From assembly GCA_019243195.1 (NCBI GenBank), contig JAFAUQ010000007.1, positions 15 to 64,014 on the forward strand: a stretch of 64,000 nt of DNA, in the 5' to 3' direction. Under the pieces are notes generated by a model. That model did not search any database. It was not told the origin of the DNA and worked only from the letters and a program-made list of their open reading frames with translations. Made by a program: the position numbers and the translations under genes. This document shows positions 4,018 to 26,506 of this stretch, piece after piece. Numbering within the stretch: the first letter of the stretch is position 1; every line of letters begins with the position of its first letter. This stretch comes from Hyphomicrobiales bacterium. GTDB taxonomy: Bacteria > Pseudomonadota > Alphaproteobacteria > Rhizobiales > Xanthobacteraceae.

Positions 4018-6849
<2,832 letters not shown>

Positions 6850-6850
6850 C

Positions 6851-6937
6851 CTTGTAGCCCGCATGAGCCGCGCGCAGCGCGGCGACATGCGGGAGCGGGT
6901 CCCGGATTTCGCGCTGGCGCGCTCATCCAGGCTACGG
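6851..6937. repeat. REP-like palindromic element, family A (full copy)
   Basis: cttgtagcccgcatgagccgcgcgcagcgcggcgacatgcggg...gcgctcatccaggctacgg; inverted termini; immediately after the ppdK stop. Confidence 0.6.
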
Positions 6938-7022
6938 CTTTCCCCCATTAACGCCATGGCAACGTTAATCCGGCAGAAAGGACTGCAGGGCCGATGAGTG
7001 CGTTAATTCGGACGGGCGTCCA

Positions 7023-8432
7023 ATGGTTCTGTGGCGTAGCGAGTGGGGCCCGGTCGCGGCGTCGTTCGCGCTTGGCGCGCTCCTCTATGCATTCACCCCG
7101 ACGACCGCGAGCTACGACGACATCGGCGCGCTGATCGCGCGCCAGCCGCAGGTCGCCGCTCACTGGCACCAGCATCTGCTCACCTCGCCGATCGAGACGG
7201 TACGGGCGGGAATTTTCGTGCTGCCGCAGCCGATCGGCACGGCGCGGCCCGGCCCGGCCGGGCTGACACTTGCGAGCTTCGAGCGCGACGATCCCGACAT
7301 CACCGGCGCCATCCGCGCGAACCTCACGCGCGCCGCGCCGGTCGACCCGGAGCCGCTGGTTTATCCCACGGTCAACCGCGCCGGCAAAGGCGATCGGCTC
7401 TCGCCGCAGCGGGCGCCGCAGCCGACCACCACAACCCCGGCCGCGGAGGCCTCCGCCGCCGAGGATGCGCCGCGCAACTTGCAACAGGACATTCTCGACG
7501 CGATCGCGCGCGAGCGCCGACCCAAAGTCGCGGCGCCGGCGATCGACGAGATCGAGGCGGCGATGCGCTTCGTGCCGTTTCCGGAATACGACATATCGCT
7601 GTCGCTCGAACTCCATCCGCAAATCCCGCGCGACGAGCCGCCGGACGAATCCGCGACCGACCAACCGGACCTCTCGATTCTCGACGAAGCGGCCGATCCC
7701 GACCCGACCGAGCGCACCGCCCGCCTTTTCTTCGACCGCGCGCCGATCGGCGCGCTGCCGCCGCGGCTCGAGCACTGGTCGCCGGGACAGGAGCCGGTGC
7801 TGATCGTGCCGCAGGTCCCGGCCGATCTCGACATCAAACGCTCGGCGCGCGGCGGCGAGAGTAGGAGCGGGGAGGGCATCACCGTCGCCGGCAAGGGCGA
7901 AGTCACCGGCGATGGCCGGCGGCCGAAGAGTCCGGCCGAGCGGCTCGGCCTCGCCGGCAAGGCACGCGCCAAGGCCGAGCAGTGCCTCGCGAACGCTGTC
8001 TACTTCGAGGCGCGCGGCGAGCCGGTGCGCGGCCAGATCGCCGTCGCCCAGGTGGTGATGAACCGCGTGTTCTCCGGCTATTATCCCAACGATGTCTGCG
8101 GCGTCGTTTATCAGAACGCGCACCGCCATCTCGCCTGTCAGTTCACCTTCGCGTGCGACGGGATTCCCGACCGCATCACCGAGGCCGACGCGTTCGCGCG
8201 CGCCAAGCGCATTTCCGCCGCGACCCTCGATGGCGCCGTGTGGTTGCCGGAAATCGGCAAGGCCACGCATTATCACGCCTATTGGGTGCACCCGTGGTGG
8301 GTGCGCACCATGCGCAAGCTTTCCCGCATCGGCGTGCACACGTTCTACCGGCCGCGGCGGTGGGGCGACGGCGCCGACGCGCCGAGCTGGGGCAACGCGC
8401 AGGCGACCGCCGAAGCAGCGGCTAAGATGTAA
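7023..8432 (+). CDS. cell wall hydrolase, SleB-domain protein
   Basis: C-terminal [10 protein letters not shown]...AQVVMNRV...[27 protein letters not shown] is the SleB/hydrolase_2 signature; N-terminal TM segment and Pro-rich linker. Confidence 0.85.
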
Positions 8433-10614: not shown

Positions 10615-10864
10615 ATCTCGGTACTAAAAGAACCGGCCAGAGCCGGCAGCAGTTATCCTCATTTCGAGCAAATCACATATAACACGTCTCAAGCAGCGAC
10701 GCTACCCCTGTCGAGCATGGCTTCGGCGAGCGCCATGCAGGTTGGGCCCCGTGTCCGATCGATGCGCGGCACTCATCGCAAGCATCAGTACTTTTCGTTT
10801 TCGCTCGCCGGCAAGCCTGCATATGTCAGTGAGCCTGACCCATCGTCACAGGAAAGTATCGGCC

Positions 10865-12106
10865 ATGCTTATGCCTCCGGCCCCGACGCAACGCACGACT
10901 TGGCGCACGCCCGCGGTCATCGTCGTGTGCGGCTGCCTCATCGGCATGATGACCTTCGGCCCACGCTCGACGCTCGGCTTCTTTCTCACGCCGCTCTCGC
11001 AAGCCCACGGTTGGGGCCGCGATGTGTTCGCGTTGGCGATTGCCGTGCAGAACCTGCTGTGGGGAGTAGGCCAGCCGTTTGCAGGTGCGCTTGCCGACCG
11101 TTACGGCGCCAACCGGGTGCTCAGCGTCGGCGCGCTGCTCTATGCGGCCGGGCTCGTCATGATGGCGTATGCGACCAATGCCGCCGTGCTCGAGCTTTCC
11201 GCCGGGTTTCTCATCGGCTTCGGCCTCTCGGGCTGCGCCTTCACCATCGTGCTCGGCGCGTTCGGCAAGCTCTTGCCGGAGAATTGGCGCTCGCTCGCTT
11301 TCGGTGCCGGCACCGCGGCCGGTTCGTTCGGGCAGTTCTTATACTCGCCTGTCGCGGTGATGCTCATGGGGGTCGTGGGCTGGCAGGAGACGCTCGTGAT
11401 TTTCGGGGCGAGCCTGCTCGTCGTGCTGCCGCTCTCGCTGGCGCTCGCCACCGAACGCGGCGCGGCGCCCGCGCCGACCGCCGGCCCACCCACGCAGTCG
11501 CTGCGCCAGGCGCTTGCCGAGGCCTTCGGGCACCGCAGCTACGTGCTCCTCGTCCTCGGCTTCTTCACCTGCGGGTTCCAGCTGGCCTTCATCACCGTGC
11601 ACCTGCCGTCCTACCTGATCGACCGCGGGCTCTCGAACCAGGTCGGCGGCTGGACACTCGCCATCATCGGCATTTTCAACATCATTGGCTCGCTCGCAGC
11701 CGGTTGGCTCGGCAACCGCATGCCCAAGCGCTACATCCTCTCGGCCATCTATTTCTTCCGCGCGCTCGCCGTCGTCGCTTTCATCAGCGTGCCGGCGTCG
11801 CCGATCGCGACTTATCTGTTCGGCGCAGTGACCGGGCTTTTGTGGCTTTCCACCGTGCCGCCGACCTCCGCCTTGGTTGCGCTGATGTTCGGTACCCGCT
11901 GGATGACGACGCTGTTCGGCTTTGCCTTCTTCAGCCACCAAGTCGGAGGCTTCCTCGGCGTATGGCTCGGCGGGATCGCCTTCGATCGCACCGGCTCCTA
12001 CAATTCCGTGTGGTGGCTTTCGGTGCTGTTCGGGCTGCTCTCGGCGGTGATCAACCTGCCGATCGTGGAGAAGCCAGTCGCGCGTCAGGCCGCTGTCGCG
12101 GTGTAG
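10865..12106 (+). CDS. MFS transporter
   Basis: About 12 predicted TM segments and the typical MFS loop GALADRYGANRV; start set at MLMPPAP. Confidence 0.85.
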   Translation: MLMPPAPTQRTTWRTPAVIVVCGCLIGMMTFGPRSTLGFFLTPLSQAHGWGRDVFALAIAVQNLLWGVGQPFAGALADRYGANRVLSVGALLYAAGLVMMAYATNAAVLELSAGFLIGFGLSGCAFTIVLGAFGKLLPENWRSLAFGAGTAAGSFGQFLYSPVAVMLMGVVGWQETLVIFGASLLVVLPLSLALATERGAAPAPTAGPPTQSLRQALAEAFGHRSYVLLVLGFFTCGFQLAFITVHLPSYLIDRGLSNQVGGWTLAIIGIFNIIGSLAAGWLGNRMPKRYILSAIYFFRALAVVAFISVPASPIATYLFGAVTGLLWLSTVPPTSALVALMFGTRWMTTLFGFAFFSHQVGGFLGVWLGGIAFDRTGSYNSVWWLSVLFGLLSAVINLPIVEKPVARQAAVAV

Positions 12107-14302: not shown

Positions 14303-15454
14303 TTATTGGGTCGCGGCGGTACGGCGTCGGCGCACAGCCCGAAGCGCGTCCGTAAGATGACTGCGCGATCCCATCCCAACCAGAGCACACGTGATGCCCG
14401 GCGCTCGGCTGGCAAAGGCGATCGCTTTTTCCGCGTCAGTCAGCGCCTTGTCCGAGCCTCCGGACAGTACCCCGGGCATGGCGAGGCTCCCACCAGCCAA
14501 CGTGGCGGAAGTGAGCACGAGCATGTCCTCTGCATGGGCGGCCGCGAGCAACGTCGCTCGTCCGTTGCGACCGCGCTGCGATCGCAACGTGGCGATCTCG
14601 CGCCACATCACGTTGTATGGAGCCTGTACGGCGGCAAAATGGTTTTCGCGGCCGCCCACATCGGCAGCGATGCTGCGCAGTCGATGCAGACTGAGATGAG
14701 CCGGCGCATCGTTGGTACAACGAAACGCTTCCCAGGTCGAAATCCCGAATTGACCGATATGGCCGCTGGCGCAGGCCTGCTCCAGCGCGTCGAAAGCTGC
14801 ACTCATGCGGCGCTCGAATTGATATTTCGACAAGCTGGCCGTGTGAACCTCGGGGTTGTGCAGCAGATAAAGATCGATCGTCGCCAGTCCCAGGTTGCGG
14901 CGACTGCGGGCAATTTGATCCGCTATAAATGCCGGAGCTATGCAGTGACTGCCGAGCAAGATATCGCCCGGCTTCAGCCCGAGTTGCTGCTGGTCGATAC
15001 GCGGGTCGAAGCGGCGATTCGCACCGCGTCCTCGCGGAGCGCGCGGCAGGTACCCGCATTTAGAGACCACGAATATCTCGTCACGTGCGGCGCTGCCGTT
15101 GCGGATCGAGTTTCGTAACGCTGCGCCAATTGCACGTTCGCAGGTCTGCGCGCCATAGCTTATGGCCGTGTCGATGACGTTGATGCCTCCGATCAAAGCC
15201 ATCTGCGCGACCCCGCGGTAGCGCTGACCACCCGCATCGTCGGAACCAAGCGAAGTCCCGAGGCCAACTCGTGATAAGCGCAGCTCGCGAAACGTCACGA
15301 ATTCAGTCGGGTGTCGCGAAGCATAGCGCCGCGTACCGGAGACTGTCGCTCGGCCCTTGACCAATTCTTCGCGAGCGGTTGCATCTCGCACCGCGCCGGA
15401 AAATCTGCTCACCACGGCCCCCGCCAAGCGACGCACCGCTGTACGCAGCGCCAT
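14303..15454 (-). CDS. aldo/keto reductase
   Basis: AKR tetrad context (IDTAISYG, FVVSKCGY, LLHNPE); start set at MALRTAV. Confidence 0.85.
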   Translation of the reverse strand: MALRTAVRRLAGAVVSRFSGAVRDATAREELVKGRATVSGTRRYASRHPTEFVTFRELRLSRVGLGTSLGSDDAGGQRYRGVAQMALIGGINVIDTAISYGAQTCERAIGAALRNSIRNGSAARDEIFVVSKCGYLPRAPRGRGANRRFDPRIDQQQLGLKPGDILLGSHCIAPAFIADQIARSRRNLGLATIDLYLLHNPEVHTASLSKYQFERRMSAAFDALEQACASGHIGQFGISTWEAFRCTNDAPAHLSLHRLRSIAADVGGRENHFAAVQAPYNVMWREIATLRSQRGRNGRATLLAAAHAEDMLVLTSATLAGGSLAMPGVLSGGSDKALTDAEKAIAFASRAPGITCALVGMGSRSHLTDALRAVRRRRTAATQ

Positions 15455-15582
15455 TCTAGAGTAAGATGCGAGAGCGCCAAGCGTCGTCGGCGGGTAGCCG
15501 GTCCAGCCGGATGTGTTTGGCCTTCCACCGGGAGCGGTGAAGCTTGGGATGTGTCTTGCAGGGCATTCCAGCCGCAATTTGG

Positions 15583-16134
15583 ATGTTTGGCCCGAACTGG
15601 ATCAGGAGCGAGATCTCACTCTCCACGCGAGAGTGTGATCGCCTGATAGAGATTGTCTCCTCAGCCGAATCGGACAACAAGCATGGCCGCGGAGGCGGCC
15701 GGTTGCGCCGGCGACGCGCCGGAAGACGCCACAAGTTGACCCTGACTCCACAGTCCGCATGGATGTATGACGTTCTCTATCAGGTCGTGACGGACGCCAA
15801 TCGCGAACGCTTCCGCTTGCTGCTCAGCGGGATCGAGCGTGCGCCGGAATATGTCGAGCAGACGGCCGGCAGCCGGCCCCTGCGCTGGCGCCGCGATTAT
15901 CGTCACAGGGATATTCACGATTCGTGCAAGCTGACAGTCATCTGCCAGCTGAGCGATCCTTCCGCCTATCGAGGGGGCGACTTGCAGATATTCGATGACG
16001 GCATAGCAACGACGGTGCCCGCTCGCGGCGGTTTTTTTGTTCTGCTCGGGGCGCTGTTTTGGCGGGTTACGCCCGTCACTCGCGGCGTACGGCGCTCCCT
16101 GGTATCCTGGTTTGCGGGGCCGAGAATGAGGTGA
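15583..16134 (+). CDS. 2OG-Fe(II) oxygenase-fold protein (P4H/PKHD-like) lacking both His metal ligands
   Basis: Paralog of 24403-25104 (KLTVICQLSD..GGDLQIF..RVTPVTRGVRRSLVSWFAGPR). HxD is RRD and the distal His is Trp. Confidence 0.75.
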   Translation: MFGPNWIRSEISLSTRECDRLIEIVSSAESDNKHGRGGGRLRRRRAGRRHKLTLTPQSAWMYDVLYQVVTDANRERFRLLLSGIERAPEYVEQTAGSRPLRWRRDYRHRDIHDSCKLTVICQLSDPSAYRGGDLQIFDDGIATTVPARGGFFVLLGALFWRVTPVTRGVRRSLVSWFAGPRMR

Positions 16135-16139
16135 GCGCG

Positions 16140-17024
16140 ATGCGGGGTTCAGGTTTCCATTTGACCGCGGAGGAGACCCGGCTGTTCAAAGAGCAGGGCT
16201 ACATCGTCCGGCCAAACGTCCTGTCGGCCCGCGAGGTCGACCTTCTCCGACGCGCATTGACCCCGGCCGAGCTGCGGCAGGATCGCCAGCCGCTTGCACG
16301 TCACAAGATCGACGCGCTGTGGCGACAACTGGTCAGGCACGCCCGCGTAGCCGGTCCGGTCGGCGAATTGTTTGGGGGCGTTCCGTGCGTCGTGCAATCG
16401 ATGATCGCGTTCAAGCCGCGGGCCCGGCCAGGGCGGCAGGCGCGCAACGGGATCGCTCTGCATCAGGATCAGCAATACATCAAGACAAAGCCGGCCGGCG
16501 TGATCGGTTGCTGGGTTGCACTTGATCACACCGATGCCGGCAACGGCGGATTCATGGTCGTGCCCGCCAGCCATTGCAAGGGTCTGCTTACGAGCCGGAG
16601 CCGCGAGGGTCGGCACTTCCAAAGCCACTCGGTCGTGCAGCACATGCGCGACTGCGATGGCAAGGAGTGGCACGAAACCGCAGATACTTTTGAGATTCCC
16701 GGCGTCAACTGGGACAACGCGATAGCACTCAACATCCCAAAAGGCGGCGCGGTCTACTTTGACGGATTCCTCGTCCACGGATCGCGCTCGAACACGGCCG
16801 AGGACCGAGATCGGCTTGCTGTCGCGATTCACTTCGTCAAGCAAGGAACCTGGGTATACCGGGTTGACCTCAATGACGTCTTCCCGGTCCGTCGCACTGT
16901 CCGCGAATTGCGCCGCAGAGGGAACGGCGCCCCGCGGTCGGCCGGGCGTCATCGCCCCAATGATCGGGGGGAGCGGGCAAACAGGCGAAAGGCAGGGACG
17001 AGGCGCAGGTATTCGAGTTCGTAG
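16140..17024 (+). CDS. phytanoyl-CoA dioxygenase (PhyH) family Fe/2OG oxygenase
   Basis: GYIVRPNVL, LHQDQ (HxD), WVALDHTDAGNGGFMVVPASH, distal FLVHGSRSN; the 3' end overlaps the convergent gene. Confidence 0.85.
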   Translation: MRGSGFHLTAEETRLFKEQGYIVRPNVLSAREVDLLRRALTPAELRQDRQPLARHKIDALWRQLVRHARVAGPVGELFGGVPCVVQSMIAFKPRARPGRQARNGIALHQDQQYIKTKPAGVIGCWVALDHTDAGNGGFMVVPASHCKGLLTSRSREGRHFQSHSVVQHMRDCDGKEWHETADTFEIPGVNWDNAIALNIPKGGAVYFDGFLVHGSRSNTAEDRDRLAVAIHFVKQGTWVYRVDLNDVFPVRRTVRELRRRGNGAPRSAGRHRPNDRGERANRRKAGTRRRYSSS

Positions 17025-17503
17025 GGCGTATGGTTGGCATCATGGCGATGGCCCGGATCATAGTAATGACCGCTGGTGAAGCCATCGAAACCGAAAACGT
17101 CCACCTGATAGCCCAACTCTTGAAGCAGCAGAAGAAGCGCGAAGCCGGTGGAGGGGCGCGGGAAAAGATGCCGCAGCCGGCAGCGCGCAGCAAATATCAT
17201 ACGACCGCGAAAGTGAGGTTTGATATTCGTCGATTCCGGCGCGATGGACGTGAACGGGCTGAGCGGCCTCAAGCCGTTGCGGCGACGGCGCGGTAAGGGG
17301 GGATTGACCGTCGTGTCACCGAAGGTGCACCAATGGGTGACGCGTGACCCGCACCATTGTTCATAGCCGTCGATCTGAAAGGCATTGATGCGAATTACCG
17401 TAGCGTAGCGGTCGATCACTTCTCCAAAACGGAAGTGGAAGCGACCATTGCCGATGACCGCGATTGGGCGCGAGAGCCCTGCGAGAAAAAGTTCCGTGAA
17501 CAT
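16949..17503 (-). CDS. GT29 (sialyltransferase)-like / DUF115-like glycosyltransferase-fold protein, short
   Basis: IAVIGNG...IDRYATVIRINAF (L-motif-like), PSTGFALLLLLQELGYQVDVFGFDG (S-motif-like), HYYD (motif III-like). Confidence 0.55.
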   Translation of the reverse strand: MFTELFLAGLSRPIAVIGNGRFHFRFGEVIDRYATVIRINAFQIDGYEQWCGSRVTHWCTFGDTTVNPPLPRRRRNGLRPLSPFTSIAPESTNIKPHFRGRMIFAARCRLRHLFPRPSTGFALLLLLQELGYQVDVFGFDGFTSGHYYDPGHRHDANHTPYELEYLRLVPAFRLFARSPRSLGR

Positions 17504-17567
17504 TATCTCTGCGGCAATGTTTTCCAGCTGAAGACATCGTGGCCGTTTGGAGATACAGCGCGCGCGA

Positions 17568-18779
17568 TCACGGGGAACGCCGCGGTTTGGCGCACCGGGT
17601 CAGGTATCCGTAGCGCAGAAGATCGTCCACGAGCTTGAGCTTGCTAGCGTCGTCGGCCGCGACCGGTAGATCGCGCACGCAGAACTCCAATCCCCGCGCA
17701 ATGTGCCGAAATGCCGGTTCGAGAGCGCGGTCGCCCCTGATGCTCGTGCCGGGCAGGTACAGGATGACCGACGGGCCGCTCACCTCGACGGTGCTTCGCA
17801 CGCCATCCGACAGCTTCAGCCGCGATGCCGTGGTCAGAGGCGCGGCCGCGGCGATATCGTGAAGGCCGCTGTGGGGTGGAAGATCGCTTTCGCTGAGCAA
17901 ACGTCCGCCCACCTGTGCGACGGCGACCGCGGTTTTCGGGTCGTCCGGTAGCCGTCGCGCCAGGTCCCGGAGCAGCCGACGATCGCGGGCACGAAGCCGT
18001 CCGTGCGAGGCAAATCCGCGCGGCAGATTGCGCCGGAACGGAGCGCTCGCGGTGAGGATGCCGCTGAAGACGTCGCGCCAAGTCGCCGGATGTACGCTCA
18101 GCGTGAGGTGCAGCGACAGGTCTTCCGTCGTGCAGGCTTCGTGCGCGACACCGCGTGGAATATAGACGACATCGCCGGGCGACAGCACGAGTTCGTGCGC
18201 CGGCTTTCCCGTTTCCTCAGGGGTGAGCGATTGCACCGGCGGCTCCACCGGCGCCTCAACCGTGCGACGGTAGATGCGCCAATGCTTATGCCCGGCGAGC
18301 TGCAGAATAAATACGTCGTGCGCGTCGTAGTGGGCGGCAAACCCTTGCGCCGAGCGCGGCGTGAAATAGCCGTTCGCCGCTATCGGCTGAGAGAGAAGCA
18401 CGCCCCGCTGGGTAAATTCGGCTTCGAGTTCCCGGCACAACCGGCCGATTCCAGCGTGGCGTCTGTGCAGCTTGGTCAAAAGCAGACTGTGACCTTGGCC
18501 GACGGCGCCGTAGACCTCGGCGAGGTCGAGTGTCCCCTCGCTTGTCAGCGCTGATTTTGGCGGCCGTTGCGCACGGCCCTTTACCAAGCTGAACCAACCA
18601 TCCTCGGGTGCGGCGAGCGACGCCAGGAGAAAATCATAGTCGGCGACGGAGGGCAGATCGTCATAGAAGTTCGAATCATTACGCTCGACGATCAATACTC
18701 TGCGTCCCCAATATGCCTGGAAGAATCGATCGATGCTGCGCGGGGCAATGAGGCCAGCAATCCCCGCACGACGCGACAT
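17568..18779 (-). CDS. JmjC/cupin-4 family Fe/2OG oxygenase (ribosomal-oxygenase-like)
   Basis: FAAHYDAHDVFILQLAGHKHWRIY and GDVVYIPRGVAHEA; C-terminal helical/winged-helix-like extension; ATG 18779 (alternative GTG 18791 overlaps the upstream stop). Confidence 0.85.
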   Translation of the reverse strand: MSRRAGIAGLIAPRSIDRFFQAYWGRRVLIVERNDSNFYDDLPSVADYDFLLASLAAPEDGWFSLVKGRAQRPPKSALTSEGTLDLAEVYGAVGQGHSLLLTKLHRRHAGIGRLCRELEAEFTQRGVLLSQPIAANGYFTPRSAQGFAAHYDAHDVFILQLAGHKHWRIYRRTVEAPVEPPVQSLTPEETGKPAHELVLSPGDVVYIPRGVAHEACTTEDLSLHLTLSVHPATWRDVFSGILTASAPFRRNLPRGFASHGRLRARDRRLLRDLARRLPDDPKTAVAVAQVGGRLLSESDLPPHSGLHDIAAAAPLTTASRLKLSDGVRSTVEVSGPSVILYLPGTSIRGDRALEPAFRHIARGLEFCVRDLPVAADDASKLKLVDDLLRYGYLTRCAKPRRSP

Positions 18780-18783
18780 CTGC

Positions 18784-20691
18784 TTAGGCACGACGCCCCC
18801 ATTTCCGTGGTGCGCCGCCCGGCAGCCGTTCTCGAACAGGCAACGCCAAGACCTCTCCTGCCTCTTGAAACACCAGGCCCAGATTGTCGAGCTCGTCGAG
18901 GGCGTCTTGCAGCGTTAGCGCGTCGAGATCCGGGAATTGAGCAAGTAGGTGCCGCTTGCGCGTCGGCCGGTCGCAAGCGAGGAAGAGTTCGCGCGCGCGC
19001 CCGGAAAGATTGACCAATTGGGACTCGTCGCCGCGATGGTCCGCGACGATGACGCACGCACCGCCGTCCCGAAAGGTCAGCATTTGAGAAAACCCCTCTC
19101 GGCGGCGTTGTTCATGATGGGCACGCCAACACCCTATGGCCGCTTCCATCTCATCCCATGCGGCCCGGGTGTCATCGTCCATGCTGGATTCAAATGGTAC
19201 GATTTGACAGACAGGCGCCTCGCTCAGAGCTTTTGGCAGAAAGCAAAGCCGCGCGCGGTCGAGGCTCTCCGAATAGATGCCGTATCTCTCCGGCTCGGCA
19301 TACATTCGACTGCCGCGGTCGAGGTAGAACTCGGCGGATGATGGTGGTCGATAACCGTACAGAGTCGGGAGCAGCTTCGTGGATTCGCGGAGTTCGGCAG
19401 CAGCTACGCCAGGCACGCGCAGCATGACGTTATACTGGAACGGGATGCCGAACTCTTCGCACAGTTTAATGGAAGCGATGTTGTCGATCGTCCGCGTACC
19501 CTTCTCCATGCGCGACAGGATGCCGGTATGGAAAGCTTCCACGCCGAGCTGAAGCCGGCGGGTTCCGGCCGCCGCCAGCAGCGCGGCCGTTTCCTCGTCG
19601 AGATCGCATCGCGCCTCGCAAAACAAGGTCACGTCCGGCGCCTCGGTTGCCAGCCGCCGCAACAGCTCCTTGGCATAGGCCGGAGGCAGATAGGCGTCGA
19701 TGAAACTCAGCTCCAGCACCTGAGTGCGCGCGATACTGGCGCGCATTTCCTCCCAGAGGGCATCGAGGGACTTCTGGCGGGCATTCGGAGAATTGCGGTA
19801 TAGCCCGCAAAACGTGCAGCCCCGCAGGCGGCCGTCGCCACGCCGGTGCTCCCAGGCGCATCCGCGCGAGGCCTCCATGGGCAGCACCAGCCCGGAGCGG
19901 GGATAGCCCGCATTCCGCGCGGCGTCGTAAAACTCCCCCATATCCGGGGGACGAGCGGTGTCGATATTGGCCTGCACCGAGGTTGGGCTCCGGCCGATCC
20001 CACCGTTGCCGTCGCGAAAGCGCAGGTTCGGCAGATCGGCAAGAACGCCCGCGCCCCAGTGCGGCAACCGCGCCAGCTTCGCGAGCGTCGCTTCTCCCTC
20101 GCCGTCGACGATCGCGTCGACCCAAGGCACGGCCCGGAGCAAATTGGCGCCTGGCTCGCCAAGAACGCCCCCGCCGCCGAGAATGACGCGCAGGTGCGGT
20201 GCGCGCCGCTTGAACTCGCGTGCCAGATAGAGGGAAGCGCCCAGTTGCAGTGCGCCGACCGAGATGCCGGCGAGGCTGTACTTCGTCAGGTCCAGCGCCG
20301 CGATCGCCGCTTGCGTGGCCTGCTCAACCTCGCGCAACGCGCCGTTTCGGGCCCAGTGCGCAAGTTCCGTGTCGCCGGCCCGTGTCAGCACATCGGCGGT
20401 GCGGTCCAGGATCTCGTGCGCCTCGTCGGGCGAATAGAGGGCGCAATAGAGCGCTTCTCCCAGCTCCCAGCCGTTGGCGACGCGATCGTAGCGGTCAAAT
20501 CCCAGACGTACGGCGACGTCGAAATGCAAATGCACGCCGTCGGCGGGAATGCCGTTGGCAGCAAGATGCGACTTGAGCACGCCAATGGCCAGCGAGGGCC
20601 ATGTCGCTAACCGCCAGGGTGCCGAAACCAGCAGAACGGCGTCCGGGTGATGCCCTTGCTTACTGGCCGAGGTGGTCGGCAGAGCGCCCAT
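18784..20691 (-). CDS. B12-binding-domain radical SAM protein (class B type)
   Basis: N-terminal Rossmann-like B12-binding region (AVLLVSAPW...), radical SAM core SRGCAWEHRRGDGRLRGCTFCG (Cx13Cx2C), GVEAF..ILSRMEKG; ATG 20691 (alternative TTG 20706). Confidence 0.85.
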   Translation of the reverse strand: MGALPTTSASKQGHHPDAVLLVSAPWRLATWPSLAIGVLKSHLAANGIPADGVHLHFDVAVRLGFDRYDRVANGWELGEALYCALYSPDEAHEILDRTADVLTRAGDTELAHWARNGALREVEQATQAAIAALDLTKYSLAGISVGALQLGASLYLAREFKRRAPHLRVILGGGGVLGEPGANLLRAVPWVDAIVDGEGEATLAKLARLPHWGAGVLADLPNLRFRDGNGGIGRSPTSVQANIDTARPPDMGEFYDAARNAGYPRSGLVLPMEASRGCAWEHRRGDGRLRGCTFCGLYRNSPNARQKSLDALWEEMRASIARTQVLELSFIDAYLPPAYAKELLRRLATEAPDVTLFCEARCDLDEETAALLAAAGTRRLQLGVEAFHTGILSRMEKGTRTIDNIASIKLCEEFGIPFQYNVMLRVPGVAAAELRESTKLLPTLYGYRPPSSAEFYLDRGSRMYAEPERYGIYSESLDRARLCFLPKALSEAPVCQIVPFESSMDDDTRAAWDEMEAAIGCWRAHHEQRRREGFSQMLTFRDGGACVIVADHRGDESQLVNLSGRARELFLACDRPTRKRHLLAQFPDLDALTLQDALDELDNLGLVFQEAGEVLALPVRERLPGGAPRKWGRRA

Positions 20692-20718
20692 CCCCACGCA
20701 TGGCAAAGCCGCCGCGGA

Positions 20719-20985
20719 TCAGCAGCTCGGTCCGCCCGGATTGGAGATGCACCCATCGCTCGCCATCATGCGCGCGCGCTGGTCCTTCAACAGCCCGGTG
20801 CTAAGTCTCTCGACATTCACGCTGAGGCTGTTATCGCGGGCAACCTTGACCATGCTGCGCGGCAGTTTCACCTTCCTGCTCGATGCTGCCGGGTGGCGCA
20901 CATTGAGCAACACTTTGGCCTTTATGCCACCCCGACCGGCGGCCTTCTTTGCACGCTTCTTTGCAGTCTTCCTTGCGCTCTTCAC
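20719..20985 (-). CDS. candidate substrate/precursor peptide (88 aa from GTG; alternative 44 aa from ATG 20853)
   Basis: In-frame GTG preceded by AGGGAG with 6-nt spacing, 29 nt after the rSAM/SPASM stop and 13-28 nt before the B12-rSAM start. GC3 about 70-80%. Sequence (V)KSARKTAKKRAKKAAGRGGIKAKV...MVKVARDNSLSVNVERLSTGLLKDQRARMMASDGCISNPGGPSC. Confidence 0.45.
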   Translation of the reverse strand: MKSARKTAKKRAKKAAGRGGIKAKVLLNVRHPAASSRKVKLPRSMVKVARDNSLSVNVERLSTGLLKDQRARMMASDGCISNPGGPSC

Positions 20986-21013
20986 TTGTTGCTCCCTTGC
21001 TTCATGTTGTCGA

Positions 21014-22570
21014 TCATTCCCATTCTCCAGCCAACACGTTCGCTGGAACTGCACCTGCATCGCTTTCGCTGAACGTGCGGACAAGATTACGAAGGCGATG
21101 AAGCTTGTCGTCGGCGGTGCAATTCGTCACGCGTCGATTGCCCGTGGCCTTGCCGTTCTGAATTCGGCAAGTTCCGCCGCACAGATTGCGAATATCGCAT
21201 CGGTTACAGCCGAGATTATGATCGACGTCGTACTCTTGCGCCACGCCTTCGAGCATGCCGATCAGCGCCGCCATGGGTTGCTTGTCCACGTGCGTGATCG
21301 CCCCGTCCAAAAGATGGCAGGGATGAACAGATCCATCCGAGGCGACCACAATCTGCTCGGCGTAGCCGCAGCCCTTGGTCCTGCGGGCAATCCGCGGGCC
21401 CGCACTTCCCTCGATCTGCTCCATCATCTGCTCGACCACGGGGCGGGTGTCGTTGATGTCGAGGGAATCCTCGATGTCGTCGCCTCGTCCGTGGTGGGTG
21501 AGCCCGTAGCCGAGGCGGAATTCGACATTTCGCCCGTCCCAGCGCTTGGTGAAATCGATGAACCCGGCCTTCATTGCGGCCCAGTTGCGTTCCATTACGA
21601 CCATGCCGATGCGGACACGCACCCCCGCGGCGACCAGGAAGTCCACCGCCTCGACGGCCCGCCGGAAGCTGCCAGGTCCGCGGATCGGATCGTTTGTAGC
21701 AGCGTCGGGGCCGTCGATGCTTATCTGCACCTGATCGACATAGCTGCGAATGGCGTCGATGTGGCGCTGGATCAAGATGCCGTTCGAGAACAGCGTCACG
21801 TCGAGGCGGCGCGCATGGGCACGCTCAAGCAGACGGTCGCATCCCGGATAAACCAAGGCCTCCCCGCCGGTGAACAGGATTCGCTCGCCGCCAGCGTCGG
21901 CGAAATCGTCGATAACCTTCAGCCACCTCTCGACCGACATCTGTCCTTTGGTTGAAACATGCGGACTCGAATCGGCATAGCAATGCACACAACTCAGATT
22001 GCATCGTTGCGTTAGATGAAGGCGCATGAAACGCCGCGGCTGCGGCTTCCAGACATCGGTATACCCTTCGATACCGCGGACGAAACCCGCCGTCGCGAGC
22101 CGGCCGATCAACGCATGGACCTGAGCAGCAACCCGGCGTCTCGTTCTTGCGCCGCGATCGCCGGCGATTAGCGCCGCGATCGCGTCAGGGGGCGTGCCGT
22201 CGCGCAGGCGCAGGAACAGCGCGTGTTCCTGCTTCGACATCGTGATGGCTATCCCTTCCTCAACACCGATCCAAAGGTGCGCGCCGTCCACAAGCCGATG
22301 CGAAAGCGTTTCCACCAGCGGCAGCGGCGTGCCGAGCGGCACCCGATACTTTCCCTCGCCGGTCTGCACGGCTGGCGGCGCGTCGCGCATTGATTGCGGC
22401 GCGCGCCACAGTTCGTGCAGCGTCGTGCGATCCAACTCGCGCTTGCCTTCGATGATATGGGCGGCGAGGGCATCCGGGCGGGGCAGTTCATACGAACTCG
22501 CCGGCGCCAGGCGACTTGGCGGAGGGGCAATAACCGATGCTGAGGATCGCCCGCGTGCCAGTTCAGGCAT
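21014..22570 (-). CDS. radical SAM/SPASM-domain peptide-modifying enzyme with N-terminal PqqD/RRE-like domain
   Basis: CNLSCVHC (Cx3Cx2C). C-terminal SPASM pattern GSVHPC...CNRCDIRNLCGGTC...C. N-terminal SKQEHALFLRLRDGTPPDAIAALIAG...ALIGRLATAGFV resembles PqqD-type RRE. ATG 22570 has AAGGTG upstream (alternative TTG 22591). Confidence 0.9.
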   Translation of the reverse strand: MPELARGRSSASVIAPPPSRLAPASSYELPRPDALAAHIIEGKRELDRTTLHELWRAPQSMRDAPPAVQTGEGKYRVPLGTPLPLVETLSHRLVDGAHLWIGVEEGIAITMSKQEHALFLRLRDGTPPDAIAALIAGDRGARTRRRVAAQVHALIGRLATAGFVRGIEGYTDVWKPQPRRFMRLHLTQRCNLSCVHCYADSSPHVSTKGQMSVERWLKVIDDFADAGGERILFTGGEALVYPGCDRLLERAHARRLDVTLFSNGILIQRHIDAIRSYVDQVQISIDGPDAATNDPIRGPGSFRRAVEAVDFLVAAGVRVRIGMVVMERNWAAMKAGFIDFTKRWDGRNVEFRLGYGLTHHGRGDDIEDSLDINDTRPVVEQMMEQIEGSAGPRIARRTKGCGYAEQIVVASDGSVHPCHLLDGAITHVDKQPMAALIGMLEGVAQEYDVDHNLGCNRCDIRNLCGGTCRIQNGKATGNRRVTNCTADDKLHRLRNLVRTFSESDAGAVPANVLAGEWE

Positions 22571-22757
22571 GACCCGCACCTTTGAAGACAACCGTTAGTC
22601 GTCGCACCAAATATTATAAGTAGCATCCCATGGTTGAAATGGGCTGTCAATCCGAATATCGTAATCGGTGCGCGCCCGCGGCGGAGCCTCTCGGCGCTCT
22701 GGCCGGTGCCGGAAGGCCGTCGACACTTGCGTTCGGACGCGCGTGCGGAGCGGGACC
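22571..22757. promoter_or_regulatory. divergent intergenic control region of the cassette
   Basis: 187-bp gap between divergently transcribed rSAM operons, containing the only AT-rich stretch locally (caccaaatattataagtagcatcc). Confidence 0.4.
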
Positions 22758-24440
22758 ATGCTTGTTTGCGCACCATTCCATTCGGTCGCCAACCCACCCG
22801 TCGGCATGGCGTACCTCGCCTCTTATCTGGGGGAACGCGGCATCGACTGCCGGCCGCGTGACATCAACATAGAGGCGCGGGAATTTGTCCGCGCGCTTCC
22901 CGGGCCGGACGGTAAGCCGGGCGCATTTGCCGCGATCGCAGATGATCTGTTTGCCTTGGCGCGCAGGACGTATCTCGGCGAGGCCGCGGCCTGGTCGTGG
23001 TTCGATTCGGGCGGCCTCGAAGCGGTCGCTGCGCGTGCCCTGAATCATCCGGTCAAGGCGATCCGCGACTTCTGGAGGGGCGCGGAGATAGAGCGTCTGG
23101 TCTCTGACGGCGCGCTGCGCCACGTGAGCGCCGCTCTGCACGATTGGCTTCTGCGCCAAGCCGAGGCGATTGCAGGCGCTGCGGCCGGTTGGGTCGGCTT
23201 TTCGACCACCATAACGAATTTCGCGCCGACCTTGTTCCTCGCGCGACGCATGCGCGAACTCGATCCGGATTTGCTGCTCATCATCGGCGGACCGCACATC
23301 TCGGCTCGCAACGCGGCCCAGATCCTGCGCGCGTGCCGCGTATTCGACTTTGCCGTGCCGACACCGGCGTTCGCGGCGCTTGAATCTTTGCTCGCCGACA
23401 TCGGTCGCGCACGGCACGGGCCCTTGCCGCCCGGCGTCTGGCGGGCGCGACGCGAGGCCACCTCCGGCAATGGTTCGTCCGCCGCCTCCGCCGTTGACAT
23501 CGAGTGTGGCAGCGGACAGGTCCGCATGGATCTCAACGCACTGCCGCCGGCGGATTGGACCTGGGCACGCCTCTCCCGTTACGACTCCGGCTTTTTGATG
23601 AAGAACACATCCGGCGATTTCACCAAATGGTATCCTACCATCCCGGTGCAGACATCGCGCGGATGCTCTTACAGCCGGTGCAAGTTCTGCCACAACGTCG
23701 TCGACTATCCAAAGTACAGCATGCAGCGTCCCGAACGCGTCGCCCAGGAGGTCAGGCATCAGATCGCCACGGTCGGCAGCCGCGGCTTTTTCTTCACCGA
23801 CGACGAGTTCAGCGGCTCGCGCAGGCGCACGGTCGAGATTGGCCGCGAGTTGCGGGCGCTGGATGAGGAGGTTCGATACTCCTGCTGGGTCCGTCTTGAC
23901 AAAATCGATGCCGAATTACTCGACGATATGTACGCCGCGGGAGCGCGCCAGCTGTTCATCGGAGTCGAGGCCGTAGATGACGACATTCTGCTGCTCATGG
24001 ACAAGGGCTACGGCTCACGCGAAGCGCTGCGCAACCTGAAGCTTCTGTACCAGTTCGCAGACCGTCATCCGGATCTGGTCTACGTCTTCAATCTCATAGT
24101 GGATTATCCCGGCGAGACGCTCGCATCCGTCCGCAGAACCCTCGCCGTCGTGGCTGAGAACCCCGAGCTGTTCGTCGGCAAGGTCGCCGCCTGCTGCGTG
24201 TTCCATCTGTACGAGGGGACGCCGGCTTTCGAGCAACTGGGAGACGGCGCCACCGCGTGCATCGATCCGCTCCTGCCGGCCGATGTCACGGTCCCGGACC
24301 TACGCTATCTATATCCGCCGGTCGGTGTCGAAACCCGTCCCGACCGTATGGAGATTTGGTCGGCGATTGCGGAATTCGTGCGCTTCAAGGAACCCCACGA
24401 TCATGGTCACTCGCGCAACACGGTCGCGATCTACGACTGA
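22758..24440 (+). CDS. B12-binding-domain radical SAM protein (class B type), second copy
   Basis: GGAG 8 nt upstream of the ATG; N-terminal MLVCAPFHSVANPPVGMAYLASYL; core SRGCSYSRCKFCHN (Cx4Cx2C); GVEAVDDDILLLMDKG. Confidence 0.85.
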   Translation: MLVCAPFHSVANPPVGMAYLASYLGERGIDCRPRDINIEAREFVRALPGPDGKPGAFAAIADDLFALARRTYLGEAAAWSWFDSGGLEAVAARALNHPVKAIRDFWRGAEIERLVSDGALRHVSAALHDWLLRQAEAIAGAAAGWVGFSTTITNFAPTLFLARRMRELDPDLLLIIGGPHISARNAAQILRACRVFDFAVPTPAFAALESLLADIGRARHGPLPPGVWRARREATSGNGSSAASAVDIECGSGQVRMDLNALPPADWTWARLSRYDSGFLMKNTSGDFTKWYPTIPVQTSRGCSYSRCKFCHNVVDYPKYSMQRPERVAQEVRHQIATVGSRGFFFTDDEFSGSRRRTVEIGRELRALDEEVRYSCWVRLDKIDAELLDDMYAAGARQLFIGVEAVDDDILLLMDKGYGSREALRNLKLLYQFADRHPDLVYVFNLIVDYPGETLASVRRTLAVVAENPELFVGKVAACCVFHLYEGTPAFEQLGDGATACIDPLLPADVTVPDLRYLYPPVGVETRPDRMEIWSAIAEFVRFKEPHDHGHSRNTVAIYD

Positions 24441-25104
24441 AGCCGTCGCGCCGCCGGGCTCGCGCGGGCTGATCCGCTGGGTTGCGAAGGCGGGAAGCCG
24501 CGGCGGACGGTTTCGCATTCCAATCCGGACGGTTGGTGGCCCGCGCGACGGATATTTTCATCTTGACTGGGTGAAGTGTGCGACACGTCTATCGTCCAGG
24601 CAATGCGATGAGATCATCAGAACAGGGGAAGGGTTCGCGCCGGAGGCGCCGACGGTCGTTGGCGAGAACATTCTTTCTGCGCACCGGGTCGGACACGTAC
24701 GTCTGCTTCCCGACGTCGCCCAGACCGAGCCGATTTATCGTCTGCTGTGGGACGTAGCCGCCGACGCGGCAAATCGGCACTACGGGCTGGCCATCACCGG
24801 CATTACCCGCATGCCGCATTACGTCGAGTATCACGCCGGCTATGGGCACTTCCACTGGCACAACGATTACAGTCACGAGTCGCAGGAATCGCCTCGCAAG
24901 TTGACCGTCATCGTGCAACTCAGTGACGGCGACGACTACGACGGCGGCGACCTGCAAGTCTTCAATGTTGCGCCTGAAGCGATGCCGCGCGAGCGGGGCA
25001 CCATCATCTGCCTGCCGTCATTCGTCACGCACCGCGTAACGCCGGTAAGCGCCGGCGTGCGACGGATCGTGGTTGCCTGGATCGCGGGCCCGAGGCTGGT
25101 ATGA
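24403..25104 (+). CDS. 2OG-Fe(II) oxygenase (P4H/PKHD-like), ligands intact
   Basis: HWHNDY (HxD), THRVTPV distal His, GVRRIVVAW Arg. Start uncertain: ATG 24403 overlaps the upstream gene; alternative GTG 24571. Confidence 0.8.
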   Translation: MVTRATRSRSTTEAVAPPGSRGLIRWVAKAGSRGGRFRIPIRTVGGPRDGYFHLDWVKCATRLSSRQCDEIIRTGEGFAPEAPTVVGENILSAHRVGHVRLLPDVAQTEPIYRLLWDVAADAANRHYGLAITGITRMPHYVEYHAGYGHFHWHNDYSHESQESPRKLTVIVQLSDGDDYDGGDLQVFNVAPEAMPRERGTIICLPSFVTHRVTPVSAGVRRIVVAWIAGPRLV

Positions 25105-25889
25105 GCGTCGCGGCGATAGCGCGCGCGTCCGGCGAGACGAAGTCGAGCCGACCAAGGTACGATGTAGCCCGCATTATAAGCACGATCCGCGAGCGCGGCT
25201 TCTGCGTGGTTCCCAACCTGATCCCGGGTCGCCGCTGCGACGCCCTCGGTGCGGCGCTGCGGCGTCTGCTCCGGGAGGAAGAGCAGGTCAACAGGCGGCC
25301 AAACGGCCATCAGCGCGTTCTCCATCTGGCGGCGAAGCATGCTCGTTTTGTCGACCTGGTGACGCATCCGCTGGTGCTGTCGGTGTGGCGCGGTTATCTG
25401 GGCGACGACATGCTATGCTCGTCGCTGACTGCCAACGCGCTTTGGCCGGGCTGCAGCGAGCAGTACTGGCATGTCGACCACCCGTATTGGACGATGGCGC
25501 AGCCCTATCCAGTCGACCTGCCGCTCGCAACGCAGACGATCTGGATGTTGGACGATTTCACCGTCGAGAACGGGGCGACGGCTGGAATCGCGGGGAGCCA
25601 TCGTCGGCCGCATCTTCCGAGCATCGGTGCAGCATGGACCGAAGAGGGCACGATTTTTACCGGTCGCCGCGGCAGCGCTGTTCTGATGGATGGAGCGCTC
25701 TGGCATACGTCGCGCCCGAATCTTACCGAGGCGATGCGCTGCGGAGTTCTGGTTAAGTACATTCGCAGCTTCTGCGTTACACAAGAGGACATGCGCCTGC
25801 AGCTCGCAGCGATCAAGCGCCCGTCGAAAACGGTCGAGCAACTTTTCGGCGCCCATCAGTATGTGCCCACCCGCAGCTTTCCTTATTAG
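25101..25889 (+). CDS. phytanoyl-CoA dioxygenase (PhyH) family Fe/2OG oxygenase (PhnY/TmpA-like position)
   Basis: ATGA overlap with the upstream stop; GFCVVPNLI, YWHVDHP (HxD), ENGATAGIAGSH, ALWHTSRPN. Confidence 0.85.
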   Translation: MSVAAIARASGETKSSRPRYDVARIISTIRERGFCVVPNLIPGRRCDALGAALRRLLREEEQVNRRPNGHQRVLHLAAKHARFVDLVTHPLVLSVWRGYLGDDMLCSSLTANALWPGCSEQYWHVDHPYWTMAQPYPVDLPLATQTIWMLDDFTVENGATAGIAGSHRRPHLPSIGAAWTEEGTIFTGRRGSAVLMDGALWHTSRPNLTEAMRCGVLVKYIRSFCVTQEDMRLQLAAIKRPSKTVEQLFGAHQYVPTRSFPY

Positions 25890-26506
25890 TGAGAGCGACG
25901 ATGCGGACCGGTTCAAAAAATGCGGGGGTACGGACGAGACGAAAGGTGCGCCGTGCCATCATTCAAAGCACGCCCGAAATGCCGAGTCTGGTGCTCAAAT
26001 GGCTGCGCCGTCTGCGCCGCGACGTAAATGGTCGACGGGTCGACCAGCTCACACACAGTTTGCAAACCGCGACGCTCGCCTTTCAGGCCGGCGCCGCCGA
26101 CGACATCATCGTCGCGGCGCTCTGTCACGACATCGGCAAGGCCGTATCCTGGGTCGACCACGGCAGGCGCAGCGCGGATATTATCAAGCCCTATGTAACG
26201 TCCGCAGCGTACTGGGTCGTTGCTGCCCACGACGACTTCCTTGCTGTCTACAACATCAACCGGAGCGGGCTCGACCCCTACGCGTTTCGCGAGAAGCACG
26301 CTCGGAGACGCTGGTACAAGACCGCGGTCGTGTTCGCCGATGAATGGGATTCGATGGCGTACGATCCAACGATCAAACCGTTGTCATTGCGCTATTTTGA
26401 ACCCCTGATCCGCCGAGTGTTTGCGGCTACCCGCAGGCGAGCGGAACGGGATACGGGACTGGCGCTCATCCAGGAGCTGGAGAGCGTCATACCGGCAGAT
26501 CGCTGA
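25889..26506 (+). CDS. HD-domain protein, PhnZ/TmpB/MIOX-like (putative mixed-valent diiron oxygenase)
   Basis: QLTHSLQTATLAFQAGAADDIIVAALCHDIGK then DHG.., AAHDD.., ADEWD gives an H..HD..H..H..D pattern; GTG 25889 overlaps the PhyH stop (alternative ATG 25901). Confidence 0.75.
   Translation: MRATMRTGSKNAGVRTRRKVRRAIIQSTPEMPSLVLKWLRRLRRDVNGRRVDQLTHSLQTATLAFQAGAADDIIVAALCHDIGKAVSWVDHGRRSADIIKPYVTSAAYWVVAAHDDFLAVYNINRSGLDPYAFREKHARRRWYKTAVVFADEWDSMAYDPTIKPLSLRYFEPLIRRVFAATRRRAERDTGLALIQELESVIPADR

Follow-up and report, generated by a model that had tools for sequence, protein, structure and literature searches.

A radical SAM/SPASM enzyme with a fused PqqD-type recognition element, the probable maturase of an adjacent conserved precursor peptide

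Results

The enzyme gene

We analysed a stretch of 64,000 nucleotides (the window; about 63% G+C) from contig JAFAUQ010000007.1 of a Hyphomicrobiales bacterium of the Xanthobacteraceae (assembly GCA_019243195.1, positions 15 to 64,014 of the forward strand), in which a first-pass annotation made from the sequence alone had singled out a radical S-adenosylmethionine (SAM)/SPASM enzyme and proposed that it acts on a ribosomal peptide; all coordinates below are positions in the window. The gene for this enzyme lies at 21014..22570 on the minus strand, where it is the sole long open reading frame (ORF), and encodes 518 amino acids from an ATG, an alternative TTG start at 22591 giving a protein of 525 residues (21014..22591, minus strand). 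The ATG is the more likely start, since the database copy of the enzyme (P0001, 518 residues) begins at the same codon and since it is preceded by AAGGTG 6 nt upstream and by TATAAT about 45 nt upstream. Residue numbers in the enzyme refer throughout to the 525-residue form, from which 7 is subtracted to obtain the numbering of the 518-residue form. The 76 bp between this gene and a divergently transcribed gene for a B12-binding radical SAM protein (22592..22667) are AT-rich, and the TATAAT, on the minus strand at 22613..22618, is a consensus match only. A protein database search returned 209 homologues of the enzyme at E ≤ 1e-5, every one of the best 120 of these scoring at least 427 bits, and the gene is a genuine one.

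Domain architecture of the enzyme

The radical SAM core spans residues 193-334 (21590..22015, minus strand) and is matched by PF04055 with an E-value of 2.6e-25 and 90 bits against a cut-off of 29.5. The three cysteines of its CNLSCVHC motif, C197-x3-C201-x2-C204 (21980..22003), are invariant in all 117 full-length homologues, and are preceded by 189 residues counted from the ATG (196 from the TTG), as the first-pass annotation had estimated at about 190. Towards the C-terminus (21107..21379, minus strand) the enzyme has seven further invariant cysteines, C408, C425, C462, C465, C471, C475 and C491, whose spacing, C408-x11-G420-x4-C425, C462-x2-C465-x5-C471-x3-C475 and C491, is that of the canonical seven-Cys SPASM motif. 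All ten cysteines, the three of the core and the seven of the C-terminal region, are kept in 117/117 full-length homologues, and with 209 database homologues on record such invariance means that the pattern is not due to chance; the earlier reading of both the CNLSCVHC core and a full SPASM motif is thereby confirmed. An additional cysteine in the core domain, C251, is near-invariant (114/117), and among the same 117 homologues Y410 and H426 are invariant and Y362/H367 conserved.

In single-sequence searches of Pfam the enzyme matched Radical_SAM and Fer4_12 only, the SPASM domain and the recognition element described below becoming visible only with family profiles and structure prediction. 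PF13186 (SPASM) is precomputed for three homologues, P0056, P0060 and P0067. A profile built on the last 170 residues of 14 family members and searched against the PDB matched the SPASM domains of the anaerobic sulfatase-maturating enzyme (anSME; 1.7e-8), CteB (1.6e-7) and PqqE (0.018), and by motif and profile the C-terminal domain is predicted to be a SPASM domain.

Residues ~91-173 (22073..22321, minus strand) form a predicted RiPP recognition element (RRE; RiPP, a peptide synthesized on ribosomes and modified post-translationally) of the PqqD type. When residues 83-190 of 26 family members were made into a profile, its top PDB matches were the RREs of the lasso-peptide proteins TfuB1 (6jx3_B, E 6.4e-5) and TbiB1 (5v1u_A, E 7.6e-5), both aligned nearly over their full length to profile positions 9-91, which correspond to residues ~91-173. 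Searched against 1.84 billion representative proteins, the same profile gave 52 matches, of which about 25 are fused to radical SAM enzymes, and the tail of the matches consisted of proteins of 83-108 residues that carried PF05402 (PqqD) in 10 out of 10 scanned cases (E 1e-10 to 1e-18). The AlphaFold model of the domain, with a predicted local distance difference test (pLDDT) score of 91.6, consists of three strands and then three helices (strands 14-19, 22-27 and 32-36, helices 38-48, 53-61 and 66-86 of the 108-residue piece); the segment PLPLVETLSHRLVDGAHLWIGVEEGIAITM makes up the three β strands, and LVETLSHRLVDGAHLWIGVEEGIAITM is the stretch forming the β sheet. The six best Foldseek matches of this model were all TbiB1 or TfuB1 chains, with target-normalised TM scores of 0.72-0.76 and a root mean square deviation of ~3.1-3.3 Å in five of the six superpositions, followed by the RREs of ThcOx, CteB, PbtF and TigE and by PqqD itself. 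Profile and model agree in assigning a PqqD-type RRE to this part of the enzyme. A match of this kind by profile methods was the check that the first-pass annotation had proposed, and profile, library search with Pfam, and fold all uphold its identification of a PqqD-like element; its boundary does not stand, because the element had been placed at residues ~118-175 and begins about 28 residues earlier, so that PLPLVETLSHRLVDGAHLWIGVEEGIAITM, previously left in the unexplained N-terminal part, belongs to the RRE.

What precedes the RRE is an N-terminal extension of residues 8-90 (22322..22570, minus strand), about 83 residues from the ATG, that is specific to the clade and belongs to no known family. 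Searches with the extension alone and as a profile gave no meaningful Pfam or PDB match (best PDB match TFB2, E 0.66), which agrees with the first-pass statement that the N-terminal part resembles nothing recognisable, its size having been put too high at ~100 residues. Alignments of the window clade show the motif LAPxxSYxxPxxxxLxxxIxEGKxxLDxxT. The AlphaFold model has a pLDDT of 63-86 over residues 41-90, and predicts, with moderate confidence, a helix at 44-56 and short strands. The extension varies within the family, the EGK..LD type being found in 36 of 109 long homologues and a CxxC motif in 18 of them, and the most distant relatives (~438 residues) lack it. In P0049, P0051-P0054, P0056, P0057 and P0066 a GGCxxC-type motif takes the place of EGK..LD, and could provide an extra metal site.

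The precursor peptide

Directly downstream of the enzyme, at 20719..20985 on the minus strand, lies a gene for a peptide of 88 residues whose GTG start, at 20985, follows the end of the enzyme stop codon (21014) by 29 bp and has AGGGAG 6 nt upstream. An 88-residue database protein, P0134, is 99% identical to it. The peptide is laid out as a Lys/Arg/Ala-rich N-terminus, a leader and a C-terminal core, and the core reads G-C-I-S-N-P-G-G-P-S-C followed by the stop codon (20719..20754, minus strand; from an alignment of 26 loci). It matches no Pfam or NCBIfam family, and a word-indexed protein search returned six close relatives only.

In order to follow the precursor beyond these relatives, we read the DNA around the enzyme in 28 related loci from a genome collection and in three more reached via individual homologues (numbered with L below), the distant precursors being found by reading the DNA beside the enzyme homologues. 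A search of 29 other related loci showed a precursor-type ORF near the enzyme homologue in 25, mostly directly downstream and occasionally 2-3 kb upstream; among the hosts are Alpha-, Beta- and Gammaproteobacteria, Myxococcota, Acidobacteriota, Planctomycetota and many Actinobacteria. In Burkholderia thailandensis, for example, the enzyme orthologue (64% identity) is followed by an ORF of 105 residues that ends ...MGCISNPGGPGC-stop, compared with ...DGCISNPGGPSC-stop in the window. The 26 aligned cores give the consensus G-C-[IVYFA]-[STN]-x-[PV]-x-G-P-x-C-stop, in which Gly1, Cys2, Gly8, Pro9 and Cys11 are invariant. Both cysteines are thus present in 26/26 aligned cores, and a Cys directly precedes the stop codon in all 26 precursors as well as in two variant cores from more distant loci (GC[WY]CP..PPGCRC-stop). 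These variants, L026:9326-9544 and L027:9314-9520, are precursors that end DGC[WY]CP..PPGCRC-stop and have four cysteines; the enzymes beside them, of ~438 residues, are 34-35% identical to that of the window and have no N-terminal extension, and in L027 a YcaO gene lies directly upstream (5991-7862).

The leaders diverge widely: those of the window and of Burkholderia are basic and rich in Lys and Ala, those of Streptomyces acidic. All of them contain a strand motif of the type hydrophobic-x-hydrophobic-x-hydrophobic along with a Leu, (D/N)Q and a Met a short way ahead of the core; in the window these read hydrophobic-x-hydrophobic-x-hydrophobic ... L ... DQ ... M. This shared motif looks like the kind of short conserved strand that is bound by an RRE. 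The N-terminal third of the window precursor is strongly basic and Ala-rich (KSARKTAKKRAKKAAGRGGIKAK), a histone-H1-like composition that recurs in the precursors of B. thailandensis, Kofleriaceae, Acidobacteriota and Phycisphaerales, the actinobacterial leaders being acidic; this basic stretch may be no more than leader, or may bind nucleic acid.

That the cassette acts on a ribosomal peptide is supported most strongly by the adjacent, conserved precursor. The first-pass annotation had given this rank to the enzyme; its proposal of action on a ribosomal peptide is supported by the RRE and by the precursor, and it is the precursor, which it had not seen, that outranks the enzyme as an indicator.

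Gene cluster and its variation

The predicted RiPP cluster extends over ~14.3-26.5 kb of the window. Immediately beyond the precursor, at 18784..20706 (minus strand), lies a gene for a B12-binding radical SAM protein assigned to the RiPP C-methyltransferases by TIGR03975 (299.7 bits, curated cut-off 281.85; orthologues in 11 of the 31 other loci), followed at 17568..18791 (minus strand) by one for a JmjC_2 Fe/2-oxoglutarate (2OG) oxygenase of the ribosomal-oxygenase type (PF08007, E 7.3e-30; present in 24/31 other loci). On the other side of the enzyme, and transcribed away from it, are a second, divergent B12-binding radical SAM gene (22668..24440, plus strand; B12-binding and Radical_SAM domains in Pfam, all NCBIfam matches below cut-off; orthologues in L003, L007, L008, L016, L023 and L029), an oxygenase of the prolyl-hydroxylase type (2OG-FeII_Oxy_3 copy b; 24283..25104, plus strand; PF13640, E 6.1e-13), to which a 2OG-oxygenase gene is best matched in 23/31 other related loci, and a PhyH-family oxygenase, copy b or PhyHb (25101..25889, plus strand; PF05721, E 3.6e-23). 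An HD-domain protein comes next (25889..26506, plus strand; Pfam HD, E 1.8e-6; orthologue only in L003); its best NCBIfam matches are HD oxygenases of the PhnZ/TmpB type (TIGR03276 at 1e-8, far below cut-off), and it may be a further oxidative tailoring enzyme.

The left part of the cluster holds a second 2OG-FeII_Oxy_3 oxygenase, copy a (15544..16134, plus strand; Pfam E 1.3e-4, under the gathering score; orthologue in L003), a PhyH-family copy a (16059..17024, plus strand; PF05721, E 3.7e-22; orthologues in L003, L005 and L008) and an aldo/keto reductase (14303..15577, minus strand; PF00248, E 2e-21), which has an orthologue in the same place in L003 and is probably the left edge of the cluster. 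The pair of 2OG-FeII_Oxy_3 and PhyH genes occurs twice in the window (15544..17024 and 24283..25889, both plus strand), as does the B12 radical SAM gene. Beyond the JmjC gene, on the strand of the enzyme (16949..17503, minus strand), lies a small GT29-like gene with a sialyltransferase motif (PF00777, E 9.4e-11, residues 15-64 only; orthologues in L003 and L008); the ORF has 184 residues, with the match confined to its N-terminal sialyl-motif region. GT29 is mainly a eukaryotic family, and the gene is an odd one to find in a bacterial RiPP cluster. Housekeeping genes flank the cluster: to its left lie nadA, nadC and an MFS gene, and to its right panE-like, ADH and bacterioferritin-like genes; this MFS gene (10742..12106), outside the conserved block, is the nearest transporter in the window.

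The same gene set is found in a metagenome-assembled genome of the Xanthobacteraceae (79% identity). Across the related loci the enzyme and the precursor are the only constant genes and all others vary: JmjC and 2OG oxygenases occur in most loci, PhyH and B12 radical SAM proteins in many, a YcaO-TfuA fusion in 13, and a carbamoyltransferase together with a 401-residue ORF in 10, while the smallest version, that of Pseudomonas sessilinigenes, comprises a PhyH-family oxygenase, the enzyme, a 67-residue precursor and JmjC. Because only these two genes are constant, the enzyme would be the class-defining maturase, and as such should act on the invariant Gly1, Cys2, Gly8, Pro9 and Cys11 of the core. 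Of the variable enzymes, PhyHb can be related to a particular residue, as its presence tracks Asn at core position 5: an orthologue is found in 11 of 15 loci with an Asn5 core and in none of 11 with another residue, in a count that ignores shared ancestry. This pattern suggests that PhyHb probably hydroxylates Asn5. In a Streptomyces cluster (L038:8178-9956), a protein of 592 residues is a fusion of JmjC_2 to 2OG-FeII_Oxy_3, which supports the view that both oxygenases work on the same substrate.

Discussion

Proposed function and chemistry

Based on these data, we propose that the enzyme is an RRE-guided radical SAM/SPASM maturase of the adjacent precursor, with a probability of about 0.8 that covers this role and not the specific chemistry. 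The proposal draws on the domain architecture, the conserved pairing of enzyme and precursor, the invariant Cys set and the RiPP-type C-methyltransferase next door, whereas leader binding by the RRE and the reaction itself are what we infer. In addition, the model of the full-length enzyme is matched by Foldseek to the RiPP maturases SkfB, CteB, SuiB and TigE over 376-471 columns. In the mechanism that we envisage, the RRE (~91-173) would bind the leader of the 88-residue precursor, probably by adding its hydrophobic-x-hydrophobic-x-hydrophobic strand to the RRE sheet, and would thereby bring the undecapeptide at the C-terminus into the radical SAM active site. SAM would be cleaved reductively at the CX3CX2C cluster to yield a 5'-deoxyadenosyl radical that abstracts hydrogen from the core, and the two predicted SPASM clusters would bind or oxidise the intermediate. 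The JmjC, 2OG, PhyH and B12 radical SAM enzymes would then hydroxylate and methylate the loop, with PhyHb as the probable oxygenase of Asn5.

As to the reaction, we tentatively favour, at somewhat less than even odds, intramolecular thioether crosslinks, one or two of them, of the sacti-/ranthipeptide type, derived from Cys2 and/or Cys11. This preference follows from the two invariant cysteines, which are the only chemically notable invariant side chains of the core, and from the nearest sequence and fold relatives of the enzyme, which are sactisynthases: the best NCBIfam similarity is to StsB, with AlbA, SkfB and PapB also among the matches, and the best PDB match in both sequence and fold is SkfB. 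It follows, too, from the four-Cys cores of the distant clade L026/L027 and from the single Cys before the SPASM hairpin (CG...PCH), with no conserved eighth Cys, in which the family resembles CteB. In CteB, with this Cys pattern, Aux I has an open site that binds the substrate Cys (PMC6231123).

Several observations weigh against the assignment or against this choice of reaction. In single-sequence Pfam searches at E ≤ 10, PF13186 (SPASM) was not matched by the enzyme, even by its isolated C-terminal 172 residues, and PF05402 (PqqD) was not matched by the isolated N-terminal 188 residues, and the full-length model has a pLDDT of 70 that is low near the cluster-binding loops. The enzyme does not reach the curated NCBIfam cut-offs of StsB (111.6 vs 625), AlbA (75.9 vs 850), SkfB (76 vs 300) and PapB (70.6 vs 340), nor those of MftC (TIGR03962, 93.1 vs 265) and PqqE (TIGR02109, 67.5 vs 381), and homology to these characterised maturases does not, therefore, assign the chemistry. 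TigE, a cyclopropyl synthase, likewise has seven SPASM cysteines without an eighth, and a Tyr occupies its Aux I site (PMC10878394); by analogy, Y410, H426 and Y362/H367 of the present family could fill that site. That the terminal Cys is always the last residue is not obviously something that a plain thioether synthase needs. Finally, neither in the window cluster (14303..26506) nor in four Pfam-annotated neighbourhoods (L001, L037, L038 and L039) did any gene show a clear leader-peptidase or exporter domain, and the product of the cluster may be something other than a classical secreted peptide.

Alternative explanations

The position of the terminal Cys fits better with a different reaction, an MftC-like oxidative decarboxylation of Cys11, possibly followed by radical or enethiol cyclisation to an aminovinyl-cysteine-like or related ring. 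The precursor of mycofactocin, MftA, has a strictly C-terminal Tyr and is the substrate of MftC, which the strictly C-terminal Cys would parallel, and the NCBIfam model of the mycofactocin maturase ranks with the best matches of the enzyme (E 1.8e-26). The annotated neighbourhoods showed neither a flavoprotein decarboxylase of the HFCD type nor a gene with a LanB/LanM dehydratase domain, core position 4 is conserved as Ser, Thr or Asn, and YcaO-TfuA, which co-occurs in 13 loci, also accompanies the thioamitides, which carry aminovinyl-cysteine. The TIGR03962 score is, however, no better than those of several unrelated SPASM families, decarboxylation leaves the second invariant cysteine, Cys2, unexplained, and we know of no radical SAM Cys decarboxylase, so that a reaction without precedent would be called for; we regard this route as quite unlikely. 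Reactions that do not involve sulfur at all are somewhat easier to credit, but still unlikely: epimerisation at C-alpha, crosslinking through C-C or C-O bonds, or cyclisation of the side chain at the hydrophobic position 3, with the Cys pair serving only as disulfide or metal ligands in the product. In proteusin clusters a TIGR03975 C-methyltransferase occurs alongside an epimerase. Enzymes that combine RRE, radical SAM and SPASM domains are chemically diverse, and two of the fold matches, SuiB and TigE, make a Lys-Trp C-C link and methyl-cyclopropylglycine, respectively (PMC10878394). Radical SAM epimerases need a Cys as H-atom donor (PMC8326336), a part in which C251 (114/117) could serve, but in those of the PoyD type only a single Cys is strictly conserved apart from the SAM triad (PMC8326336), compared with seven invariant extra cysteines in the present family, and an NHLP or Nif11 leader is missing from the precursor, which matches no Pfam or NCBIfam family. 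A PoyD-type epimerase was accordingly rejected for its wrong Cys pattern and wrong leader type. For the remaining reactions of this group, core position 3 varies between I, V, Y, F and A and offers no invariant aromatic residue for a cyclophane-type link, and only the two Cys and the Pro among the invariant side chains offer any chemistry.

A role outside RiPP biosynthesis, with the enzyme an anSME or a heme or heme d1 enzyme of the AhbC/AhbD/NirJ type and the small ORF a product of chance, is effectively refuted. It is true that the best PDB match of the SPASM profile is anSME, that models for AhbD, NirJ2 and AhbC rank high among the NCBIfam matches, and that at the G+C content of the window spurious ORFs are common. 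Yet those NCBIfam scores are 4-7 times under the cut-offs, there are no sulfatase or heme genes nearby in the window, the core has no C/S-x-P-x-R sulfatase motif (it reads C-I-S-N-P), and the enzyme carries an RRE, which anSME and heme-type enzymes do not. Its resemblance to anSME is confined to the SPASM domain. The small ORF, for its part, is conserved in position and at its C-terminus across several phyla and has a 99% identical protein of 88 residues on record. We therefore rejected an anSME or heme-type identity on the RRE, the adjacent precursor, the lack of sulfatase or heme context and scores far below cut-off. Grouping with non-RiPP SPASM enzymes, which the first-pass annotation had named as the outcome that would tell against its proposal, was not what we found, as the whole-protein model matches SkfB, CteB, SuiB and TigE and the precursor is adjacent.

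A bolder and doubtful possibility is that the enzyme carries out a new radical SAM chemistry on a strictly C-terminal Cys, for instance a decarboxylative or S-C ring closure of Cys11, Cys2 and the Pro-Gly-Gly-Pro loop, and is the founding member of a multi-phylum RiPP class in which the small macrocycle is tailored by up to nine enzymes, through hydroxylation and C-methylation here and elsewhere through thioamidation or carbamoylation. If this were true, the lack of a peptidase or exporter gene would mean that the product might act in the cell, as a cofactor-like molecule, a metal-binding peptide or a modified small basic protein, and not as an antibiotic that is secreted.

Significance

The fusion of RRE, radical SAM and SPASM domains is the standard build of CteB, SuiB and TigE and is unsurprising in itself. 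What is gained is a definition of the substrate and extent of an apparently unstudied and widely distributed RiPP family, whose pair of enzyme and precursor is found in hosts that range from B. thailandensis and Pseudomonas to Streptomyces and uncultured Acidobacteriota. In the window, as many as ten candidate tailoring genes surround a core of 11 residues, namely two for B12 radical SAM proteins, one for JmjC, two for prolyl-hydroxylase-type and two for PhyH-type oxygenases, and one each for the HD-domain, GT29-like and aldo/keto reductase proteins, which implies an unusually dense modification of a very small scaffold, and the invariant terminal Cys hints at chemistry possibly unlike that of known thioether synthases. 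The genetic tractability of B. thailandensis and the minimal version in P. sessilinigenes make the question directly testable. The B. thailandensis locus, with its fused tfuA-ycaO and two radical SAM genes, was noted in 2021 in genome mining for thioamide clusters, where no function could be assigned to the radical SAM proteins (PMC8120280). This is the sole mention that we found in a literature search which does not cover most subscription papers and which returned no paper characterising the enzyme-precursor family; a text search of the literature for the core motif strings gave no paper, and one on the combination of enzymes gave only unrelated systems (biphenomycin), reviews and the 2021 thioamide paper.

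Comparison with known systems

CteB (the thioether synthase of thermocellin/SCIFF; 5wgg), SkfB (6efn), AlbA, StsB and PapB share with the enzyme the order RRE, radical SAM barrel and C-terminal auxiliary-cluster domain, an order that has been described for SkfB, CteB, SuiB and TigE (PMC6231123, PMC10878394). CteB and the related sacti- and ranthisynthases are fold matches of the enzyme at a Foldseek probability of 1.00 and, like it, have a Cys-containing substrate encoded nearby, and CteB has the same pattern of a single Cys before the hairpin (CG...YPCH) and no eighth Cys. SkfB, on the other hand, has a Twitch domain and not a SPASM domain (PMC6231123). Sequence identity to the CteB/SkfB group is 13-24%, the enzyme has ~83 extra N-terminal residues, and its precursor is unrelated to those of sacti- and ranthipeptides, having two Cys only, one of them strictly C-terminal. 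The gene company also differs, consisting here of O2-dependent Fe/2OG oxygenases in aerobic soil bacteria, whereas the CteB group is found in clusters of the Firmicutes type.

TfuB1, TbiB1 and PqqD are stand-alone RREs, whereas the RRE of the enzyme is fused, is 14-18% identical to them, and has a long helix 3 followed by a conserved GF(I/V)RGI(x)GY linker. The mycofactocin (MftC/MftB/MftA) and pyrroloquinoline quinone (PqqE/PqqD/PqqA) systems likewise combine a SPASM radical SAM enzyme and a PqqD-type RRE with a short peptide that reacts at its C-terminus, and like the window cluster they have no dedicated exporter, so that the present product could be intracellular as well. In those systems, however, the RRE is separate and the accompanying genes differ, and the window substrate ends in Pro-x-Cys instead of the Gly-Val-Tyr of mycofactocin and has no Glu/Tyr pair as in pyrroloquinoline quinone.

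A counterpart already described is the cluster of B. thailandensis with fused tfuA-ycaO, which belongs to the same family and whose enzyme (P0015) is the orthologue with 64% identity mentioned above. The order radical SAM/SPASM enzyme, precursor, B12 radical SAM protein and JmjC is identical in the two clusters, with 2OG and PhyH genes divergent on the other side. The window cluster does not have the YcaO-TfuA, ThiS, carbamoyltransferase and 401-residue ORF of the B. thailandensis version, and carries in their place another B12 radical SAM gene, a further 2OG/PhyH pair and the GT29-like, HD and aldo/keto reductase genes.

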